Origin: Candidatus Omnitrophota bacterium
Lineage (GTDB): Bacteria > Omnitrophota > Gorgyraeia > Gygaellales > Profunditerraquicolaceae
NCBI GenBank assembly: GCA_018897555.1
Contig: JAHIKK010000034.1
Location: forward strand, 4,527-68,526
DNA: 64,000 nt
Reading direction: 5' to 3'
A model generated the notes under the pieces. The model saw only the letters and a program-made list of their open reading frames with translations, ran no database searches and had not been told where the DNA came from. How positions within the stretch are numbered: position 1 is the first letter of the stretch; each line of letters begins with the position of its first letter. Shown in pieces: positions 16,266 to 32,678 of the stretch. A program made the position numbers and the translations under genes.

Positions 16266-16322
16266 AGGGACCGTTTCTATTTTTCTTTATTAATAAGGTT
16301 CAGAAAAATAGAAACGGTCCCT
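16266..16322. repeat. Palindromic repeat copy A (AGGGACCGTTTCTATTTTTC ... GAAAAATAGAAACGGTCCCT), abutting the stop codon of the 1080-aa minus-strand gene
   Basis: 20-bp perfect inverted repeat. Nearly identical copies occur at 19630-19697 and 25944-25989. Confidence 0.85.
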
Positions 16323-19629: not shown

Positions 19630-19697
19630 AAATCCAGGGACCGTTTCTATTTTTCCTGGTTAAATTATAAAGAAAAATAGAAACGGTCCCTGGATTT
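19630..19697. repeat. Palindromic repeat copy B (extended ~26-bp stem) in the divergent promoter region between the 1080-aa gene and gatC
   Basis: AAATCCAGGGACCGTTTCTATTTTT ... AAAAATAGAAACGGTCCCTGGATTT. Confidence 0.85.
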
Positions 19698-24983: not shown

Positions 24984-25945
24984 TTGTTTTAGGAATTGAG
25001 AGCTCTTGCGATGAAACCGGGGTGGCTGTGGTTAAGAATGAAAGAAAAATTTTAGCGAATGTCATTGCCTCTAGCCTAAAATTACATAGCCGCCATGGCG
25101 GGGTGGTTCCGGAGATTGCCTCGCGTATGCAGTTGGAAAGTATCGCCGGCATATTTACTGAGGCAATGCAGATCGCTAAAATTAAGCCTGCGCAGATTGA
25201 CCTGGTTGCGGTTACCACTCATCCGGGTTTACCCGGGTCACTGATAACGGGGATCGCATTTGCCAAAGCACTGGCTTTAAGCTTAGGCAAGCCGATACTG
25301 GGGGTTAATCATATTCATAGCCATATTTATGCCAATCTTCTTTACCCTGAGAAGATTAAATTGCCGGCTGTAGCTTTAGTAGTTTCCGGTGGACATACCT
25401 CTCTTTTTTATCTAAAGGATTTTTCTAAAATCCAGGTATTGGGGCAAACCCGCGATGACGCCTGCGGTGAGGCTTTTGATAAGGTAGCCAAGATTATGGG
25501 GTTGGGTTATCCCGGAGGGCCGTTAATTGAAAAAATAGCTCGAGGTGGAAATGAGCATAAAATTAAGTTTGCTTGTTGGGGAAATACTGAGCTGGATTTT
25601 AGTTTCAGTGGTATAAAAACCGCGGTTTTATATTATTTAAAGGATAAAAAACCCGGCAGTAAATTGCTCAAAGACCTGGCTGCTTCTTTTCAAGAGAGTG
25701 CCGTCAATGTTTTAGTAAAAAAATCCCTGCTTGCCTGTAAACGAAAAAAGGTTAAGCATCTTTTAATCGGCGGCGGGGTGGCGGCCAACGGAGTTTTGCG
25801 TCAAAAATTAATGGCAAGCGCTAAAGCTGCAGGAATTAACTGTTTTTTTCCGAATATTGATCTGTGCATGGATAATGCGGCGATGGTTGCCGGCCTGGGA
25901 GGTTATCTTTATAAGCGCGGCGCAAGGAACGATTTTAAAAACTAG
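24980..25945 (+). CDS. tsaD: tRNA N6-adenosine threonylcarbamoyltransferase
   Basis: MIVLGIESSCDETGVAVV start and HSHIYA metal site. Confidence 0.9.
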   Translation: MIVLGIESSCDETGVAVVKNERKILANVIASSLKLHSRHGGVVPEIASRMQLESIAGIFTEAMQIAKIKPAQIDLVAVTTHPGLPGSLITGIAFAKALALSLGKPILGVNHIHSHIYANLLYPEKIKLPAVALVVSGGHTSLFYLKDFSKIQVLGQTRDDACGEAFDKVAKIMGLGYPGGPLIEKIARGGNEHKIKFACWGNTELDFSFSGIKTAVLYYLKDKKPGSKLLKDLAASFQESAVNVLVKKSLLACKRKKVKHLLIGGGVAANGVLRQKLMASAKAAGINCFFPNIDLCMDNAAMVAGLGGYLYKRGARNDFKN

Positions 25946-25989
25946 GGACCGTTTCTATTTTTCTTTTTAGAAAAATAGAAACGGTCCCT
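25944..25989. repeat. Palindromic repeat copy C, starting at the tsaD stop codon
   Basis: TAGGGACCGTTTCTATTTTTCT-tttt-AGAAAAATAGAAACGGTCCCT. Confidence 0.85.
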
Positions 25990-26009: not shown

Positions 26010-26456
26010 ATGCCTACGGACGGACAAATGATTGTACGTTTATTATTAACTTTGGTTTTAAGCGGTTTAATCGGCCTGGAAAGGCAGGTGCACCGCAGAG
26101 ATGCCGGCCTGCGCACGCATATATTAGTCGCTTTAGGTAGCTGCCTTATCATGTTGACATCTCTGTATGTTTTTGATATATATAAAGCTCAGGTGGCCTT
26201 AGACCCCGTACGTATTGCTGCGGGAGTAGTTACCGGTATTGGTTTTCTTGGCGCCGGTACAATCATCCGTGAATCCGATGGAGTTAAGGGCTTGACCACG
26301 GCGGCTAGCCTATGGGTGGTTGCGGGTATTGGTTTAGCGGTGGGGGTGGGTTTTAATAAAATCGCACTTTATACCACAATTTTGGTTTTAATTGTTTTAC
26401 ATTTTTTACGCTTTGTAGAAGTGCCACTTTCAAAGGAGGGTAAACATGGCCTTTAA
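26010..26456 (+). CDS. MgtC/SapB family membrane protein
   Basis: LSGLIGLERQ...AGLRTHILVALGSCLIM motif with 4-5 predicted TM helices. Confidence 0.75.
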   Translation: MPTDGQMIVRLLLTLVLSGLIGLERQVHRRDAGLRTHILVALGSCLIMLTSLYVFDIYKAQVALDPVRIAAGVVTGIGFLGAGTIIRESDGVKGLTTAASLWVVAGIGLAVGVGFNKIALYTTILVLIVLHFLRFVEVPLSKEGKHGL

Positions 26457-26949
26457 AAAGAACCTGGAGGAAAAAACGCTGGATGTCGATGCCGCAATGC
26501 AAGGGACCTTAAGCTTTAAGGATCCGGTTAATCTGCGGATTAACGGAAAATTTGAAGGCCATCTGGATACCCGGGGAAATTTGACTATCGGCACTTCGGC
26601 GGTAATCAACGCGGATATCGTGGGAGATAATATTATTATTGGCGGCCGGGTTACGGGCAAGATTACGGCTAAAGAAAGGCTTACCTTGCTTCCGCAGGCG
26701 ATAGTAGAAGGGCATATCTATCCGGCAAAACTTAATATTACCGAAGGCGCGGTTTTCCAGGGACAGTGCACAATGCTGCATGATTTTCTTAATTCGGAAC
26801 AACTGGCTAAATACCTGGAGGTAGAATTAGGCTCGGTCATGGAATGGGCTAATTCCGGAAAAGTGCCGGCAAGTAAAGAAAATAACGACTGGAAATTTGA
26901 ACGTAAAGCCATAGATTCCTGGGTAGCAACAGGCAAAATCGCAAAATAA
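26446..26949 (+). CDS. Bactofilin-domain protein with C-terminal excisionase-type helix-turn-helix extension
   Basis: Beta-helical bactofilin repeats (NLTIGTSAVINADIVGDNIIIGGRVTGKITAKERLTLLPQAIVEGHI...), then LNSEQLAKYLEVELGSVMEWANSGKVPASKENNDWKFERKAIDSWV, which resembles HTH_17. Confidence 0.65.
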   Translation: MAFKKNLEEKTLDVDAAMQGTLSFKDPVNLRINGKFEGHLDTRGNLTIGTSAVINADIVGDNIIIGGRVTGKITAKERLTLLPQAIVEGHIYPAKLNITEGAVFQGQCTMLHDFLNSEQLAKYLEVELGSVMEWANSGKVPASKENNDWKFERKAIDSWVATGKIAK

Positions 26950-26964
26950 AGTTTTGTTAAAAAA

Positions 26965-27276
26965 ATGACTGAAGAAAAAATGCTTACTGTTAGAGATGTA
27001 GCCACTATGTTAGGAGTCTCAGAAAAAGATGTTTTGGATCTGACTGAGAATGGGACGATTCCGGGTTATAAGGTAGGAGGCGTATATCTAAGATTTAAGA
27101 AGGAGCAGGTTGAACAATATAAGAAGAATCAAAGTCATCTGGCGCCTAAGGCGGCTAAAGGAGAATCCGAAGGCTTAGGCAGCAGGATCCATGACTTCTT
27201 TTATTTCAATGATTTTTATATCTTTGCCCTGATCCTCATCGTCCTTTTAGGATATCTGGTTTACCGGGGCCTTTAG
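26965..27276 (+). CDS. Excisionase-family HTH DNA-binding protein with C-terminal transmembrane anchor
   Basis: [49 protein letters not shown], and a hydrophobic C-terminus ([17 protein letters not shown]). Confidence 0.6.
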
Positions 27277-27280
27277 AGCG

Positions 27281-27952
27281 ATGACTGCGGGTAAGGGGTT
27301 TTGTGATTTAGGGTTTGCCAAAATTGATACCGCCAGAAAGAAACGAAAAGGATTCGCGGAAGTTATTTATTGCCCGGGAAAAAATCGCCTGCACTTAAAG
27401 GAAATTGCTAAAAAAATAATTGCTTCCCGGGAAGACCTGCTTTTAACCAAACTGGATAAAACTACATTCTCCTTCTTAAAGAAAAAAATCCCTGTTTTAA
27501 AATATAATCCTTTGGCAAAAATCGGTTATTATTTAACCAAACCCAAAACCCTCTCTAAAGGTTTAGTGCTGGTGGTTTCTGCCGGAACAGCGGATATTCC
27601 GATAGCTGAAGAAGCGGTGCAAACCCTGCTGGTTATGGGTAATCGGGTCGAGAGGCTCTATGATGTAGGCGTAGCCGGAGTGCACCGCCTGATGAATAAT
27701 ATTGATAAATTAAGAAAGGCGCAAGTCATTGTGGTAGTGGCAGGCATGGAAGGAGCTTTAGCCAGTTTAGTCAGCGGATTAGTCAAGGCGCCGATTGTGG
27801 CTGTACCGACTAGCTGTGGATATGGATCCAGCTTTTCCGGGCTGGCCGCGCTGCTCACCATGCTCAATGGCTGCTCGCCGGGAGTAAGCGTAGTAAATAT
27901 TGATAACGGATTTGGGGCAGGTTATTTTGCCAGCTTAATCAACAGGAAATAA
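27281..27952 (+). CDS. larB: LarB-like (PurE-like) nickel-pincer cofactor biosynthesis carboxylase
   Basis: [19 protein letters not shown] matches the LarB-type N-terminal motif. The C-terminal domain is PurE-like ([10 protein letters not shown]). Confidence 0.55.
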
Positions 27953-27954
27953 TT

Positions 27955-29286
27955 ATGGCGCTTTCGGGTCTGGATATTTATAAATTATTGCCTAAAACAA
28001 ATTGCCGCCAGTGTGGTTTTGCCACCTGCCTGGCTTTTGCCATGCAGCTGGCCAAGAAAACAGTGGCGATTGAAAAATGCCCTTTTATTTCGCCGGAGGC
28101 TAAAAGTATTTTGGAAGCCCAGGCATTGCCGGCGATTAAATTAATTACTTTAGGCAGCCAGGAATCGAAATTTGATATTGGTAATGAAACGGTAATGTTC
28201 AGGCACGAAGAGAAATTCCGTAATCCGGCGGGAGTTGGTTTTATTATTGAGGATGGCCTAAGCGACACCGAAATAAGAGAGCGGCTTAGGAAAATTAATC
28301 AATTAAAATTCGAACGCGTAGGCCAACAGCTAAGCGTTAATCTGGTTGCCCTAAAGCAAAATAAGGATGCCTCCAGGTACCTGGAGGCGGTGAAATTGCT
28401 TCTGGATAATACAACTTTGCCGATGATGCTGATGAGCAAGGATTTGGCTGCTTTAAAACAAGCGGTAATTATCAGCCAAGAGCGTAAGCCGCTGCTTTAT
28501 TCCGCGCAACAGGAAAATTTCGCGCAAATCGGTGCTTTAGCTAAAGAATTTCAGCTGCCTTTGGTAGTAATGGCGCAGGATATTGACCAACTCCGCCGGC
28601 TGACCAAAGAACTTAACGGCTTAGGAGTAAACGAACTGATTTTAGATACCGGAATAAAGCCTTTGGCGGATAAAATCTGGGATTTAACCCAACTCCGCCG
28701 GCAGGCGCTGAAGAGATCAAATCGCGCATTGGGTTATCCCACCCTGGCCATCGTTGAGCAAACTGACCCTTATCTAGAGGCAATGGAGGCAGGCGCTTAT
28801 ATCGCTAAATATGCGGGATTAGTTTTGATTAAGGGATGGTCTAGTTGGGAAGTCCTTTCAATTTTGACCTTGCGGCAAAATATTTATACTGATCCGCAGA
28901 AACCTTTACAGATTGATCCTAAGCTTTACTCCGTTGGGCAGGTAAACCGGGATTCTCCGGTTCTGGTTACCACTAACTTTTCTTTAAGTTATTATACTGT
29001 TTTAGGAGAGGTAGAGGCCAGTAAAATACCCGCATACATCTTAAGCGTCGATACCCAGGGCATGTCTGTGCTTACGGCCTGGGCCGCGGAAAAATTTAAT
29101 GCCGAGGCAATTACAAAATCATTAGAAACCTGCGGGGTAAAAGAGGTAATCCGGCATAAGGATTTAATTATTCCCGGTTATGTTGCCATGATCAGCGGAG
29201 ACCTCCAAGATCAATCAGGGTTTAGAATAATTGTCGGCCCTAAAGAAGCAGCCGGGATCCCCGCGTTTTTAAAAAAACTTAATTAA
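27955..29286 (+). CDS. acsC: Corrinoid iron-sulfur protein large subunit (acetyl-CoA decarbonylase/synthase gamma subunit)
   Basis: N-terminal LDIYKLLPKTNCRQCGFATCLAFAMQLAK [4Fe-4S] motif, a TIM-barrel domain and a C-terminal corrinoid-binding domain. About 443 aa. Confidence 0.85.
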   Translation: MALSGLDIYKLLPKTNCRQCGFATCLAFAMQLAKKTVAIEKCPFISPEAKSILEAQALPAIKLITLGSQESKFDIGNETVMFRHEEKFRNPAGVGFIIEDGLSDTEIRERLRKINQLKFERVGQQLSVNLVALKQNKDASRYLEAVKLLLDNTTLPMMLMSKDLAALKQAVIISQERKPLLYSAQQENFAQIGALAKEFQLPLVVMAQDIDQLRRLTKELNGLGVNELILDTGIKPLADKIWDLTQLRRQALKRSNRALGYPTLAIVEQTDPYLEAMEAGAYIAKYAGLVLIKGWSSWEVLSILTLRQNIYTDPQKPLQIDPKLYSVGQVNRDSPVLVTTNFSLSYYTVLGEVEASKIPAYILSVDTQGMSVLTAWAAEKFNAEAITKSLETCGVKEVIRHKDLIIPGYVAMISGDLQDQSGFRIIVGPKEAAGIPAFLKKLN

Positions 29287-29302
29287 AGTTAAATTTTAAT
29301 TT

Positions 29303-30931
29303 ATGCAAAAATTTAAGGTTACATTTCTTCCTGATCATTTAACGATTACTGCGGAAAAGGATAGCTCCATTCTTACCGCGGCTATCTCCGCGGGGATTTA
29401 TCTTAATTCTAACTGCGCCGGAGATGGAACTTGCGGCGGATGCAAGGTGATCGTTAATCAGGGGCAAGTCAAAAGCCAACCCAACGGAATAATCACCGCG
29501 CAAGAGAAAAAAAATAATCTCTATTTGGCCTGTTTGACCGCTATCCAGAGTGATTTAGAGATTTTAATACCGGATAGTTCACGGATGGATAAAGATATCC
29601 AAACCGATAACTTAGGAGGCGATGCTACGATTGAACCCGGGGATACTCTAGGTAAAAACTTCGGGCTTTGTTTTGATATCGGCACGACGACAATTTCCGG
29701 ACAGCTGGTAAATCTGAATTCAAAAAAAATCCTGGGAACCAAAACCGCTTATAACCGGCAGGCTGCTTTTGGCAGTGATGTAATTACGCGGATTGTCTAT
29801 GCGGCTAAAACCGGCGGTTTAGAAAAATTACATAACGCCCTTAGCGGTACGATGAATCAAATTATCCGGGAGTTAGTCAGCGAGCATAAGGTTGATCTTA
29901 ATGCTGTTAACTGTATTGTTTGTTCGGGAAATACGACGATGATGCATCTGCTTTTAAGCCTGGATCCGGCGCATATCCGCCGGCAGCCGTATGTTCCTCC
30001 GGCAAATTTTCCGTCGGTTTTGCGCGCCGCGGAAGCAGGGATACAGATTAGCCCTCAAGGACTGCTCAGTTGCGTTCCCGGAGTTTCCGGTTATCTGGGC
30101 GGGGATGCAATCGCCGGAGTCTTATCCAGCGGCATATATCAAAAAGAAGAGACCTGTATTTTAATTGATATCGGGACAAACGGAGAGATTGTCTTAGGTA
30201 ATCGGGATTTTCTGGTCGCCTGCGCGGGATCGGCCGGGCCGGCTTTTGAAGGCAGCGGGGTAACCAGCGGCATGCGCGCCTCCAGCGGGGCAATTCAAAA
30301 AGTAAGTATCAATAAAAATGATTTTAGCGTTAAGTATTCGACGATTCAGGATAAAATACCCCGGGGGATTTGCGGATCAGGTTATATTGATTTACTCAGC
30401 GAAATGTTAACCTCCGGAATAATCGATAAAAGTGGAAAGATCAAGGTTACGGGTAAACGCATCCGCTCTAGCGATAATGGCCGGGAATTTGTGGTTTGTT
30501 TTAAAGAAGAGATCCGGGCGCAAGCGGATATTGTGATTAACGAGGCAGACATTGAAAATCTTAAGCGTTCTAAGGGAGCGATATATTCAGCTTGCGCTAT
30601 TTTAGTTAAACATTTAGCTTTGGAATTTTCTGCTATCTCGAAGATATTTATTGCCGGTGGGTTCGGTACCTACCTGGATATCGAAAAAGCAATCCGCATC
30701 GGATTATTGCCGGATTTAGAGCGTTCTAAATTTATTTTTATCGGGAATAGTTCTTTGGCCGGCTCCCGGGAAATACTTTTATCCAGCCAGGCTCAGGCGA
30801 TGGCGGAGGCGCTTGCTTTAAAGATTACTTATTTTGAATTATCGATGGACTCAGACTATATGGAAGAATATAGCCAGGCGTTATTTTTCCCGCATACAGA
30901 TTTGACTAAGTTTCCTACGGTGAAATTTTAA
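29303..30931 (+). CDS. Reductive activase of corrinoid iron-sulfur protein (RACo; 2Fe-2S ferredoxin + ASKHA ATPase)
   Basis: N-terminal plant-type ferredoxin (CAGDGTCGGCKV) followed by an ASKHA-fold domain. Conserved position between acsC and acsD. Confidence 0.75.
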   Translation: MQKFKVTFLPDHLTITAEKDSSILTAAISAGIYLNSNCAGDGTCGGCKVIVNQGQVKSQPNGIITAQEKKNNLYLACLTAIQSDLEILIPDSSRMDKDIQTDNLGGDATIEPGDTLGKNFGLCFDIGTTTISGQLVNLNSKKILGTKTAYNRQAAFGSDVITRIVYAAKTGGLEKLHNALSGTMNQIIRELVSEHKVDLNAVNCIVCSGNTTMMHLLLSLDPAHIRRQPYVPPANFPSVLRAAEAGIQISPQGLLSCVPGVSGYLGGDAIAGVLSSGIYQKEETCILIDIGTNGEIVLGNRDFLVACAGSAGPAFEGSGVTSGMRASSGAIQKVSINKNDFSVKYSTIQDKIPRGICGSGYIDLLSEMLTSGIIDKSGKIKVTGKRIRSSDNGREFVVCFKEEIRAQADIVINEADIENLKRSKGAIYSACAILVKHLALEFSAISKIFIAGGFGTYLDIEKAIRIGLLPDLERSKFIFIGNSSLAGSREILLSSQAQAMAEALALKITYFELSMDSDYMEEYSQALFFPHTDLTKFPTVKF

Positions 30932-30945
30932 AGGGGAGAGCAAAT

Positions 30946-31887
30946 ATGGAAACACAATTAGTGCTGGAGAAATGGCCGGGAGTAGTTTCGACGGTAGTTA
31001 TCGGAGCGAAAAAAGAAGCGGGTGGTTCGCGCGGCAATACTGTAACCATTGGCGGGCAAAACAGTTTACCTTTATTATTTAAAGAGGGAGCTATTCCCCA
31101 TAAACCCATAATTGCTTTTGAAATCTGGGATATTGCCCCGCAAGACTGGCCGGATGAGCTGATTTCTGCTTACGGAAAAGCCATAAATGACCCCTTGGCC
31201 TGGGCGGAAAAATGCGTAAATGAATTTAAAGCAGAATTACTCTGCGTAAAAATGCAGGGAACGCATCCTGATTTTGGCAATAAAAGCCCTGAAAAAGCGG
31301 CAAAGTTTATTTCTTTATTATTAAGTAAGGTTAGGGTTCCTTTAATTATTATCGGAAGCGGGGATGACGCCAAAGATAACCTGATTCTGCCGGCTTGTTC
31401 AGAGGCAGCCAGGGGAGAGCGTTGCCTGATAGGTTGCGCGGTACAAGATAATTATAAAACTTTAGTGGCCAGCGTATTAGCTGACGGCCATAGTATTATT
31501 GCTGAAAGCCCGATAGATATTAATATTGCCAAACAGTTAAATATTTTAATCTCCGACATGGGATTAAGCTTGGAGCGCATTGTAATTAATCCGACGATCG
31601 GAGCATTAGGGTATGGCCTGGAATACGCTTATTCCATTATGGAGAGGGCCAGGCTGGCTGCTTTGTCCGGAGATAAAACTTTAGCTTCACCGTTTATTTG
31701 TTTTATCGGCCAGGAGGCCTGGAAGTCCAAAGAGGCAAGAGTCAGTGTTGAACAGGGAATTATCTGGGAAGCGCTTACCGCCACCAGCCTGATTCAATCC
31801 GGAACGGACCTTTTGATTATGCGCCACCCTCAAGCCGCGCAAAAAGTAAATAATTATATAGAAAATTTATTCAAGGACAAGGAGTAG
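30946..31887 (+). CDS. acsD: Corrinoid iron-sulfur protein small subunit (ACDS delta subunit)
   Basis: 313-aa TIM-barrel protein in the acsC-acsD-acsE gene order. Confidence 0.8.
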   Translation: METQLVLEKWPGVVSTVVIGAKKEAGGSRGNTVTIGGQNSLPLLFKEGAIPHKPIIAFEIWDIAPQDWPDELISAYGKAINDPLAWAEKCVNEFKAELLCVKMQGTHPDFGNKSPEKAAKFISLLLSKVRVPLIIIGSGDDAKDNLILPACSEAARGERCLIGCAVQDNYKTLVASVLADGHSIIAESPIDINIAKQLNILISDMGLSLERIVINPTIGALGYGLEYAYSIMERARLAALSGDKTLASPFICFIGQEAWKSKEARVSVEQGIIWEALTATSLIQSGTDLLIMRHPQAAQKVNNYIENLFKDKE

Positions 31888-31889
31888 AG

Positions 31890-32678
31890 ATGTTTATCAT
31901 TGGTGAGTTAATTAACGGAATGTACACGAATATCGCTTTGGCGCTTAAGGATCACGACAAAAAAATCGTGCAGACTTGCGCGTTAGAACAAATTGCCAGT
32001 GGCGCGGATGCCCTGGATGTATGCTGCGGGCCGGCTTCCCAAAATCCCTTAATCGATATGCCCTGGCTGGTGGAGGTAATTCAGGAGGTAACCGATAAAC
32101 CGCTTTGCCTGGATTCCAGTAAGCCTAAAGTTATTGCCGAAGGCCTAAAAGCTGCTAAAAATAAAACGATAATTAATTCTACGACCGCCGATGCGGAAAA
32201 GTTAGAGATACTTATTCCGCTGGCTAAAAAATATAAATCTAAGCTCATCGGAATAACCATCAGCGCCGCAGGTATACCCCAGAATAAAGATCAACGCCTG
32301 GAGTTAGCGGCAATAATCCTTACGCATGCCACTGATGGAGAATTTCCCATTACCGATTTGTATCTTGACCCAATCGTTATGCCGGTGAATGTAGCTCAAG
32401 GCCAAATTAAAGATATCCTGTTAACCATTGCTGAGCTTAAAATAATCTCCGAGCCTAGCCCGAAAACAATTATCGGCTTAAGCAATATTTCTCAAGGCGC
32501 GAAAGTGCGCAGCCTGATTAACCGCACATTTTTGACAATGGCAGTTGCATCCGGATTAGATTCTGCTATACTTGACCCTAAAGATAAAGAGCTGATGGAC
32601 ACCTTAATTACCGCAGAGCTTATCTTAAATAAAAATATTTATTGCGATTCGTATTTAGAGGCTTATCGAAAAAAGTAA
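31890..32678 (+). CDS. acsE: Methyltetrahydrofolate:corrinoid/iron-sulfur protein methyltransferase (pterin-binding)
   Basis: Pterin-binding fold (IIGELINGMY...LDVCCGPA...). 262 aa. Confidence 0.8.
   Translation: MFIIGELINGMYTNIALALKDHDKKIVQTCALEQIASGADALDVCCGPASQNPLIDMPWLVEVIQEVTDKPLCLDSSKPKVIAEGLKAAKNKTIINSTTADAEKLEILIPLAKKYKSKLIGITISAAGIPQNKDQRLELAAIILTHATDGEFPITDLYLDPIVMPVNVAQGQIKDILLTIAELKIISEPSPKTIIGLSNISQGAKVRSLINRTFLTMAVASGLDSAILDPKDKELMDTLITAELILNKNIYCDSYLEAYRKK

Follow-up and report, generated by a model that had tools for sequence, protein, structure and literature searches.

Described systems related to the locus

Bactofilins are widespread scaffolds, and little is understood about how they interact with client proteins. 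In M. xanthus, the BacNOP bactofilin polymer is reportedly linked to chromosome organisation through PadC and ParB/ParA, a link to DNA that is indirect, via PadC and ParB. RacA of B. subtilis has a MerR-like winged helix-turn-helix (wHTH) at its N-terminus and, after it, a coiled coil for binding DivIVA, an example of a wHTH combined with a part that self-associates or attaches to a scaffold. Domains of the HTH_17 family are overwhelmingly DNA binders. A MerR-like fold that binds protein is known from CbpM, which recognises the CbpA J-domain. Many Omnitrophota are ultra-small cells, and their division and chromosome-organisation machinery is not known.

Canonical bactofilins, such as C. crescentus BacA and T. 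thermophilus TtBac, have a beta-helix domain with an interface Phe and a short basic N-terminal peptide. Their C-terminal tails are short or disordered, the global consensus of the bactofilin membrane-targeting sequence (MTS) is MFSKKKK, and the F130R mutation abolishes polymerisation of BacA (PMC12448750). BldC, RdfS and Xis are free, basic proteins that form DNA-dependent oligomers, head-to-tail on DNA. Contacts of BldC with DNA are made by K26, T27, T29, R30, W31, K33, H46, R47 and R48; R30A and H46E each abolish DNA binding, and RacA uses the Arg equivalent to R30 (PMC5859096). In B. subtilis, BacR (YhbD), an HTH protein encoded beside the bactofilin genes, physically binds bactofilins, which recruit it to the membrane and hold it there, and in this bound state it no longer binds DNA (PMC13649987).

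Arrangement of the locus

The locus compared here with these systems lies in a 64,000-nucleotide stretch of Omnitrophota DNA (the window). It comprises three open reading frames on the + strand, at the positions given in a preliminary description of this DNA, with the following features.

26010..26456, + strand: gene for a short integral membrane protein of the MgtC/SapB family, 148 aa (Pfam MgtC)
26446..26949, + strand: gene for the bactofilin-wHTH fusion, 167 aa, core gene of the module (Pfam Bactofilin and HTH_17)
26446..26469, + strand: disordered N-terminal peptide MAFKKNLE of the fusion, residues 1-8, candidate MTS (pLDDT, conservation)
26476..26769, + strand: bactofilin beta-helix of the fusion, residues 11-108 (AF2, Foldseek)
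26755-26757, + strand: F104, conserved Phe of the C-terminal polymerisation interface (phmmer alignment)
26785..26949, + strand: C-terminal MerR/Xis-type wHTH (HTH_17) of the fusion, residues 114-167 (Pfam, AF2)
26842-26844, + strand: E133 of the fusion, at the position of BldC R30, within recognition helix 128-137
26965..27276, + strand: gene for the tail-anchored wHTH partner, 103 aa, second core gene (Pfam HTH_17)
26980..27126, + strand: wHTH of the partner, residues 6-54, with an acidic recognition helix (AF2)
27193..27267, + strand: aromatic juxtamembrane motif of the partner (residues 77-86), running into the C-terminal TM helix (residues 83-101)

The MgtC stop overlaps the fusion start, as first described, here by 11 nt and by 11-14 nt in 31/50 close loci. 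Between the fusion stop and the partner start lie 15 nt, a gap that is mostly 1-18 nt among relatives. The module is flanked by housekeeping genes (GatB, CtpA, a deacetylase, TsaD, LarB and CdhD), and the window holds no further bactofilin or wHTH paralogue. Fusion and partner are in the same frame in the window, separated by TAA and five codons; stop-codon read-through joining them was rejected because the spacing in relatives (e.g. L002) is not a multiple of three. A 271-aa frame joining fusion and partner at L044 is spurious and stems from masking by a run of N.

The bactofilin part of the fusion

The beta-helix recognised in the preliminary description is indeed that of a canonical bactofilin. 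Residues 12-108 match Pfam Bactofilin (PF04519) with 85.5 bits (cut-off 27.9), and the AF2 model (pLDDT 87) forms a beta-helix at 11-108 for which Foldseek finds BacA (2n3d; TM 0.84, rmsd 2.1 Å) and also TtBac (6rib). In phmmer alignments, F104 corresponds to BacA F130 and TtBac F105, and distant fusions have F or another hydrophobic residue there. Residues 1-8 have pLDDT < 50, with M1, F3, K4 and K5 at least 90% conserved among close orthologues; the peptide is similar to the MTS consensus, yet does not match it, and distant fusions have different short basic N-termini. What sets the fusion apart from canonical bactofilins is a folded, highly conserved wHTH, together with an obligate tail-anchored partner gene. 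Between beta-helix and wHTH the linker is short here; distant members have a variable one that exceeds it by 10-25 residues.

Family and fold of the two wHTH domains

The C-terminal ~50 residues of the fusion had been read as an excisionase-type HTH, and both profile and structure bear this out. Residues 114-162 match Pfam HTH_17 (PF12728) with 36.1 bits (E 7.9e-9), and residues 6-56 of the partner with 45.2 bits (E 1.2e-11), against a cut-off of 27. The TIGR01764 'excise' model (cut-off 28.8) is passed by the partner (42.8 bits), the fusion scoring below it (18.7). In the AF2 models, fusion residues 117-161 adopt an alpha1-alpha2-beta-beta-alpha3 arrangement (H117-124, H128-137, E143-145, E148-152, H153-161), and the partner domain comprises E6-8, H9-16, H20-28, E35-37, E41-45 and H46-54. 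The partner domain had been called a paralogue of that in the fusion. Common family membership stands, but the two are only 17% identical and BLASTP detects no similarity; judged by sequence, they are members of one family and not close paralogues.

Foldseek superposes the wHTH of the fusion on BldC, RdfS, RacA and Xis at 1.2-2.8 Å, with 1.2-1.5 Å for BldC and RdfS and an rmsd of 2.4-2.8 Å for RacA. It also matches the protein-binding CbpM (3ucs), to which no sequence relationship is detectable and whose biological setting is a different one. Single wHTH domains gave zero phmmer matches in the PDB; the profile search alone gave matches, the closest solved relatives being Pukovnik Xis, RacA and BldC (E ~1e-5), all DNA-bound proteins.

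Phage excisionase PHROGs are matched weakly (best 9.9e-9), as is MAD1 (NCBIfam 38-41 bits; PADLOC 6.8e-7), which is what leftovers of a mobile element or defence system might give, the HTH_17 domains then being excisionase/recombination-directionality factors or MADS-type HTHs that lie beside a bactofilin by accident. The MAD1 scores, however, are far under the cut-off of 80, the block contains neither integrase nor defence genes, its flanks are housekeeping genes, and the module does not stand out in GC content (0.439 vs 0.428 for the window). The synteny of the block holds across the Omnitrophota, with the fusion its best conserved gene. Such an origin is effectively refuted, the searches having returned generic HTH matches only.

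The preliminary description proposed a DNA- or nucleoid-anchoring apparatus. The filament would array DNA-binding wHTHs, the tail-anchored wHTH would bind DNA too, and the chromosome would be tethered or positioned at the membrane. This is possible, although rather unlikely; such an apparatus would correspond to RacA-DivIVA or BacNOP-PadC-ParB, but with the link made covalently within one protein. The HTH_17 threshold passed by both domains, and that of TIGR01764 by the partner, speak for it, as do the fold matches to DNA-bound proteins and the rank of RacA, itself a chromosome anchor, as second-best PDB sequence match (5.7e-6). Such wHTH proteins typically oligomerise head-to-tail on DNA (PMC5859096), which suits display on a polymer. 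Also in its favour are the basic wing residues and W31 that are retained, and a DNA polymerase I gene that comes next at L059 and L061.

Loss of the DNA-contact residues

The positions that contact DNA in BldC were surveyed in 70 fusions and 55 partners, and the outcome speaks against anchoring. The base-reading Arg of BldC and RacA (R30) is E in 59/70 fusions and D in 46/55 partners. The position of H46 is D/E in 43/70 fusions and V/L in 49/55 partners, that of K33 is N or E (E in 49/55 partners), that of R47 is W or L, and that of T27 is D/E in partners. Among the basic contacts K26, R30, K33, H46, R47 and R48, only R48 is retained in both proteins (K/R in 59/70 fusions, R in 55/55 partners) and K26 in the partner, which keeps the equivalents of K26, R41, R48 and R50. 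HMMER alignments reveal the same divergence: the KTV.R(W/Y) motif is common to Xis, RacA and BldC, and the fusion and partner domains differ there. Four acidic residues occupy the recognition helix of the partner, and the net charges of the two module domains are -1.3 and +0.2, vs +5 for BldC.

The surface implicated in head-to-tail contacts fares otherwise. The hydrophobic 'head' patch of BldC (F21, V23, W31) corresponds to L124, V126 and W134 of the fusion, kept in 69, 64 and 68 of 70 sequences, and the 'tail' positions L7, Y35 and G39 of the partner are conserved. The acidic alpha2 of the partner is complementary to the basic wing of the fusion (K139, K144, K150). The module domains share the fold of BldC, RdfS and Xis, and the fusion their 'head' patch, but they are attached to a polymer or membrane-anchored, neutral or acidic, and devoid of R30, H46, K33 and R47. 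RacA, close to both wHTHs and likewise a MerR-like wHTH joined to a scaffold-associated part, differs in that the fusion carries its wHTH C-terminal to the bactofilin, lacks a coiled coil and has Glu/Asp in place of the base-contact Arg.

Because the basic DNA-reading residues are exchanged for conserved acidic or aromatic ones, the wHTHs may act mainly as protein-protein adaptors, a use of this fold for which CbpM is a precedent. A MerR/Xis-type wHTH has apparently been re-used away from canonical DNA reading. The earlier term 'DNA-binding module' follows from HTH_17 membership only and does not extend to the contact residues, now acidic or neutral, or to the charge, which is not net positive. 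By the same token, the architecture on which nucleoid anchoring was based is upheld, and neither condition named as refuting it (failure of the C-terminal extension in HTH profile and structure tests, lack of co-conservation) applies, but with the contact residues replaced and no net positive charge it is no longer the best-supported reading. Nor were ParB, PadC or parS-like elements found linked to the module in the window or at close and divergent loci, and the absence of linked ParB-like or ParA genes distinguishes it from the M. xanthus system.

The retained wing basics (the R48 equivalents) and the W31 equivalent of the fusion make non-canonical or non-specific DNA binding possible. The bactofilin filament could then be a chromosome-binding cytoskeleton, with a non-canonical DNA-binding wHTH on each subunit and the tail-anchored wHTH co-assembling on DNA, forming a nucleoid-membrane tether universal to Omnitrophota for which ParB-type adaptors would be unneeded. 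This version is unlikely. If DNA binding does survive, the fusion would be the first bactofilin to contact DNA directly.

Conservation of the gene pair

Fusion and partner are adjacent in ~50 close Omnitrophota genomes and in 9/9 divergent lineages (40-55% identity), with the partner directly downstream. Three of the nine divergent contexts have altered flanks, on both sides at L054 and L065 and in the upstream genes at L056. The pairing is not chance adjacency. In 6/9 divergent contexts MgtC lies directly upstream of the fusion, among them L056 despite its different genes beyond MgtC; at L052, L054, L065 and L019 MgtC is missing. Of the three-gene module initially proposed, the fusion-partner pair is thus invariant and MgtC is not a fixed member: the unit consists of two genes, fusion and tail-anchored wHTH partner, with MgtC frequent but dispensable. 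LarB and CdhD are mere neighbours, since other lineages have PolA, SNase, GreA, ACPS, DUF6485 or PDZ genes instead.

Among 25 close relatives having all ten genes of the block, the fusion is on average the best conserved (mean identity 85.3%; first of the 10 in 18/25 loci). It exceeds even GatB and TsaD, which fits the expectation for a multi-interface polymer. Homologues of the fusion form 1728 clusters and those of the partner 754, all named ones belonging to Omnitrophota. A profile built from distant fusions retrieves 421 proteins, and both domains are present in all of the best 120 of these 421. No description of the pair was found in the searchable literature, in agreement with the preliminary description, which had not recognised the system.

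An HTH gene that invariably adjoins a bactofilin gene recalls BacR, itself genetically linked to BacE and BacF. One or both wHTH proteins could be transcription regulators, perhaps of their own operon, whose access to DNA is controlled by sequestration on the polymer or at the membrane. This is improbable. Besides the loss of the DNA-contact residues, a permanent TM anchor and a covalent fusion offer no obvious release step, and neither protein matches DUF4004 (PF13171) at E up to 1. BacR is, unlike the partner, a soluble DUF4004 protein of ~210 aa from Firmicutes, unfused, without a TM helix and with DNA binding shown. A conserved operator was not found either. The palindrome with a 20-bp stem upstream of mgtC (25945-25988), considered as an operator or riboswitch of the module, is instead a REP-like insertion: it has no Rfam family, occurs in 3 copies in the window and is missing from most relatives, where tsaD and mgtC are just 10-25 nt apart.

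Membrane proteins of the module

The AF2 model of the partner (pLDDT 71; 103 residues) consists of the wHTH (6-54), a disordered segment (55-70) and two helices (71-81 and 83-101) with pLDDT 85-93. The best 19-residue Kyte-Doolittle window reaches 2.16 at residues 81-99. The C-terminal helix and this hydrophobic window identify the partner as tail-anchored, with the single TM helix noted from the start. Close orthologues conserve the juxtamembrane motif (77-86) to at least 90% and vary in the linker before it; all divergent partners have variants of the motif followed by a terminal hydrophobic helix.

The assignment of the upstream protein to the MgtC/SapB type was likewise sound. Residues 11-137 match Pfam MgtC (PF02308) with 138.4 bits (cut-off 31.4, E 1.9e-40), and several hydrophobic segments are present. 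The NCBIfam MgtC equivalogs score below their cut-offs (149.5 vs 214 and 99.8 vs 255), and the protein covers just positions 4-136 of a 215-position profile. It is a membrane domain only, without the C-terminal soluble domain of full-length MgtC equivalogs (~215-231 aa). Some distant loci encode forms of 218-222 aa.

Proposed function

What is established is the domain architecture, the folds, a polymerisation Phe that is kept, DNA-contact residues that are lost, and a tight, conserved gene pairing. Taken together, these features favour, tentatively and as a serious possibility short of a probable one, a bactofilin scaffold at the membrane, with its wHTH paired to that of a tail-anchored partner. 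The locus would encode a phylum-wide membrane-cytoskeleton module of Omnitrophota with an invariant core of two proteins. The fusion would polymerise via its beta-helix, probably held on the inner membrane face by its basic N-terminal peptide, and every filament subunit would bear a flexibly tethered MerR/Xis-type wHTH. The partner would display another wHTH, divergent from the first, at the end of a disordered tether, with an aromatic juxtamembrane helix beside the single C-terminal TM helix. Binding of the polymer-borne to the membrane-borne wHTH, possibly head-to-tail as in BldC and RdfS, would tie the filament to one specific protein in the membrane. The MgtC-like protein, translationally coupled, would be a frequent third component. 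The cellular role may lie in shape, division or membrane organisation.

Several points sit against the scaffold-adaptor pairing: a bactofilin with a putative MTS of its own has no obvious need for a membrane adaptor, HTH_17 domains mostly bind DNA, the closest solved relatives are DNA-bound, and some wing basics and W31 are retained.

The Omnitrophota, a mostly uncultured phylum, retain throughout a bactofilin that carries a folded adaptor domain, along with a membrane partner dedicated to it, and the module is likely a core component of their cell biology. Fusion and partner make up a defined, testable bactofilin-client pair.

A distant group of fusions (25% identity) is encoded near a gene for a ParA/MinD-like ATPase (L058).

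Gene organization and predicted folds

The module comprises three ORFs lying exactly where the preliminary description had placed them, and all their Pfam domain calls exceed the curated thresholds:

26010-26456, + strand, mgtC-like gene (Pfam MgtC, 138 bits)
26446-26949, + strand, bactofilin-HTH fusion gene (Pfam Bactofilin and HTH_17)
26965-27276, + strand, HTH-TM partner gene (Pfam HTH_17)

The start of the fusion gene (ATG) and the end of mgtC share 11 nt, and the partner starts 15 nt past the fusion TAA stop. The fusion and partner ORFs share a reading frame, with a single TAA and five codons between them (26446-27276); this is probably coincidental, since relatives do not keep the arrangement.

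In the fusion (167 aa), Pfam Bactofilin covers residues 12-108 (85.5 bits) and HTH_17 residues 114-162 (36.1 bits). Its AF2 model (32-sequence alignment, pLDDT 87, pTM 0.65) has a disordered N-terminal octapeptide, a beta-helix (residues 11-108) and a winged HTH (wHTH) built of helices 117-124 and 128-137, a beta-hairpin (143-152) and helix 153-161; given the pTM, how the two domains are oriented to each other is uncertain. In the partner (103 aa), HTH_17 covers residues 6-56 (45.2 bits) and the NCBIfam TIGR01764 'excise' threshold is also passed. The partner model (pLDDT 71) consists of a wHTH (6-54), a disordered stretch (55-70), a helix (71-81) and a confident C-terminal helix (83-101). This last helix and the top Kyte-Doolittle window (2.16, residues 81-99) predict a tail-anchored protein. 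The domain composition, the single C-terminal TM helix and the overlapping MgtC-type gene, all proposed from sequence, are thus borne out. The two HTHs had also been called paralogous; they do belong to the same HTH_17 family, but close paralogy does not hold, with 17% identity and no BLASTP match.

Conservation of the gene pair

The fusion has 1728 homologue clusters. Among the best 120, identity is 84-95% and all named homologues are from Omnitrophota, by source-given names that a minority of the proteins carry. Several genome records with near-identical modules (L005, L008, L011, L021, L023 and others) bear the name 'uncultured Planctomycetales' or 'Candidatus Pacebacteria'; their sequences fall inside the Omnitrophota set, and coarse or wrong labels or bin contamination are likely.

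The block gatB-ctpA-deacetylase-tsaD-mgtC-fusion-partner-larB-cdhD is collinear in 51 GTDB species genomes, which by itself says little about function, the relatives being close. More telling is the identity ranking inside the block: in the 25 loci holding all ten genes, mean identity is 85.3% for the fusion (the top gene in 18 loci), 77.9% for GatB, 73.4% for TsaD and 71.6% for the partner.

When 1.8 billion cluster representatives were scanned exhaustively with HMMER, ∼25 more clusters (at 50% identity) of full-length fusions emerged; these share 25-55% identity with the query and vary in linker length. A profile of these distant fusions matched 421 proteins; both domains occur in all of the best 120, and the named members among these are again all Omnitrophota. 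In each of nine sampled divergent contexts, a small HTH_17 gene lies directly 3' of the fusion; its product runs from a wHTH through a variable linker and an aromatic motif (LAYNDFY is one variant) to a terminal hydrophobic helix. The pair is kept in L054 and L065 although both flanks are unrelated to those of the window, and in L056 although the upstream genes differ. MgtC is directly 5' in six of the nine, L056 included, and is missing in L052, L054, L065 and the close relative L019. What follows the pair differs between lineages (LarB/LarC, PolA, SNase, GreA, ACPS, DUF6485 or PDZ). Therefore, what stays constant is the pair of genes, and of the three-gene module first proposed, co-conservation holds for fusion and partner. 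MgtC, whose gene overlaps the fusion by 11-14 nt in 31 of 50 close loci, is a frequent accessory, translationally coupled by the overlap; LarB and CdhD are bystanders.

The MgtC adjoining the fusion in L061 (3317-3973) and L064 (3226-3894) is a long form (218-222 aa), extended at the C-terminus by a soluble part; in the window and most relatives it has 145-160 aa and the membrane domain only. Directly downstream of the module, 27281-32678 holds larB, which scores 280 bits in NCBIfam and belongs to nickel-pincer cofactor biosynthesis, together with a CO dehydrogenase/acetyl-CoA synthase cluster that has a CdhD/AcsD-type delta subunit and further ORFs. LarB with LarC adjoins the module again in L062 and L064, not in other lineages.

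The wHTH domains and DNA contact

By Foldseek, the fusion wHTH superimposes on DNA-bound BldC (1.5 A) and the RdfS excisionase (1.2-1.4 A); other matches are DNA-bound RacA, Pukovnik Xis, Tn916 Xis, MerR-family regulators and CbpM, a protein-binding MerR-like fold. A profile of both wHTH families finds Pukovnik Xis (4.8e-6), RacA (5.7e-6) and BldC (1.2e-5) by sequence. The assignment to this family is therefore firm. In BldC, K26 and R30 read bases, T27, T29, W31 and K33 contact phosphates, and binding is lost with either R30A or H46E; the Arg equivalent to R30 is in use in RacA too (PMC5859096). BldC, its sequence checked against 21 residue numbers in PMC5859096 and agreeing with the HMMER output, was aligned with 70 fusions and 55 partners.

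Residues at BldC positions in fusions and partners
R30: fusions E 59/70; partners D 46/55
H46: fusions D/E 43/70; partners V/L 49/55
K33: fusions N 51/70; partners E 49/55
R47: fusions W 60/70; partners L 54/55
T27: fusions S 48/70; partners D/E 53/55
W31: fusions W 68/70 (kept); partners L 54/55
R48: fusions K/R 59/70 (kept); partners R 55/55 (kept)

The partner also keeps K26 (52/55) and a basic residue at R41 and at R50 (54/55 each). BldC has a net charge of +5; the fusion wHTH averages -1.3 and the partner wHTH +0.2. Given the acidic and aromatic replacements, the face that contacts DNA in relatives is conserved here with other chemistry, a pattern more in keeping with a protein interface than with one to the DNA backbone. 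The DNA or nucleoid tether of the preliminary description, favoured by the usual function of the family, the resemblance to RacA and the wing residues that are kept, is thus rather unlikely: the DNA-binding module stands as to family and fold, but its DNA-contact residues are mostly replaced, its charge is near zero or negative, and the contact feature of the wHTH group is absent. The hydrophobic 'head' patch of BldC head-to-tail contacts (F21, V23, W31) seems retained in the fusion (L124, V126, W134), and the acidic recognition helix of the partner may be charge-complementary to the fusion's basic wing (K139, K144, K150).

The bactofilin half and a possible mechanism

The beta-helix matches BacA (2n3d, TM 0.84) and TtBac (6rib) in Foldseek. 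In the phmmer alignment, F104 corresponds to BacA F130 and TtBac F105, the Phe that is conserved in the C-terminal polymerisation interface; BacA F130R neither polymerises nor binds membranes (PMC12448750). The conserved N-terminus MAFKKN is similar to the global membrane-targeting consensus MFSKKKK, as a resemblance only. In distant fusions the linker to the wHTH is variable and 10-25 residues longer, which argues that the wHTH would be a tethered module and would not cap the polymerisation interface.

The best reading, held tentatively, is that the fusion forms a membrane-associated bactofilin polymer displaying wHTH adaptors, which would dock onto the wHTH of the tail-anchored protein, with the MgtC-like protein often joining as a third membrane component; candidate roles in the cell lie in morphogenesis, division or membrane organisation. 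A sequestration switch like that of B. subtilis BacR with BacE/BacF (PMC13649987) is improbable, as an operator was not found and a release step is not evident. Gene context and scores contradict a mobile-element or defence origin, which is very improbable indeed. The remaining probability goes to other, unlisted functions.

Relation to known systems

By profile and fold, the module belongs to the bactofilin and HTH_17 families. Its way of working comes closest to that of a bactofilin scaffold that has its client-binding domain built in, and it is distinct from the RacA, BacR, PadC/ParB, excisionase and MAD1 systems. Full-text literature searches turned up no account of bactofilins in Omnitrophota or of a bactofilin-HTH fusion, in line with the preliminary description, which recognised no described system here; the proteins' database labels do not go beyond 'polymer-forming cytoskeletal protein', 'CcmA' or 'excisionase family DNA binding protein'. 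The module is of interest as phylum-wide, extremely conserved and directly testable.

A distant fusion group (P0217 and P0289, ∼25% identity) differs in context (L058 1-5850, JGI 3300009777 Ga0105164_10002154). These fusions sit 3' of two genes, one actin-like and of the Volactin family, the other for a ParA/MinD-like ATPase that carries an AMPK1_CBM domain, and are followed by a different small membrane protein, not a tail-anchored wHTH. They may represent a separate cytoskeletal or positioning cluster.

A palindromic repeat

The window holds three copies of a perfect palindrome, GGGACCGTTTCTATTTTTC / GAAAAATAGAAACGGTCCC, each with both arms exact (16267-16321, 19637-19690 and 25945-25988; chance expectation 0.02 matches). 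No Rfam family corresponds to it. It is also found in L002, L010 and L029, and as a variant in L011. The third copy sits between tsaD and mgtC, a gap of only 10-25 nt in most relatives; the palindrome thus looks like a sub-lineage-specific REP-like intergenic repeat or a terminator-like insertion.
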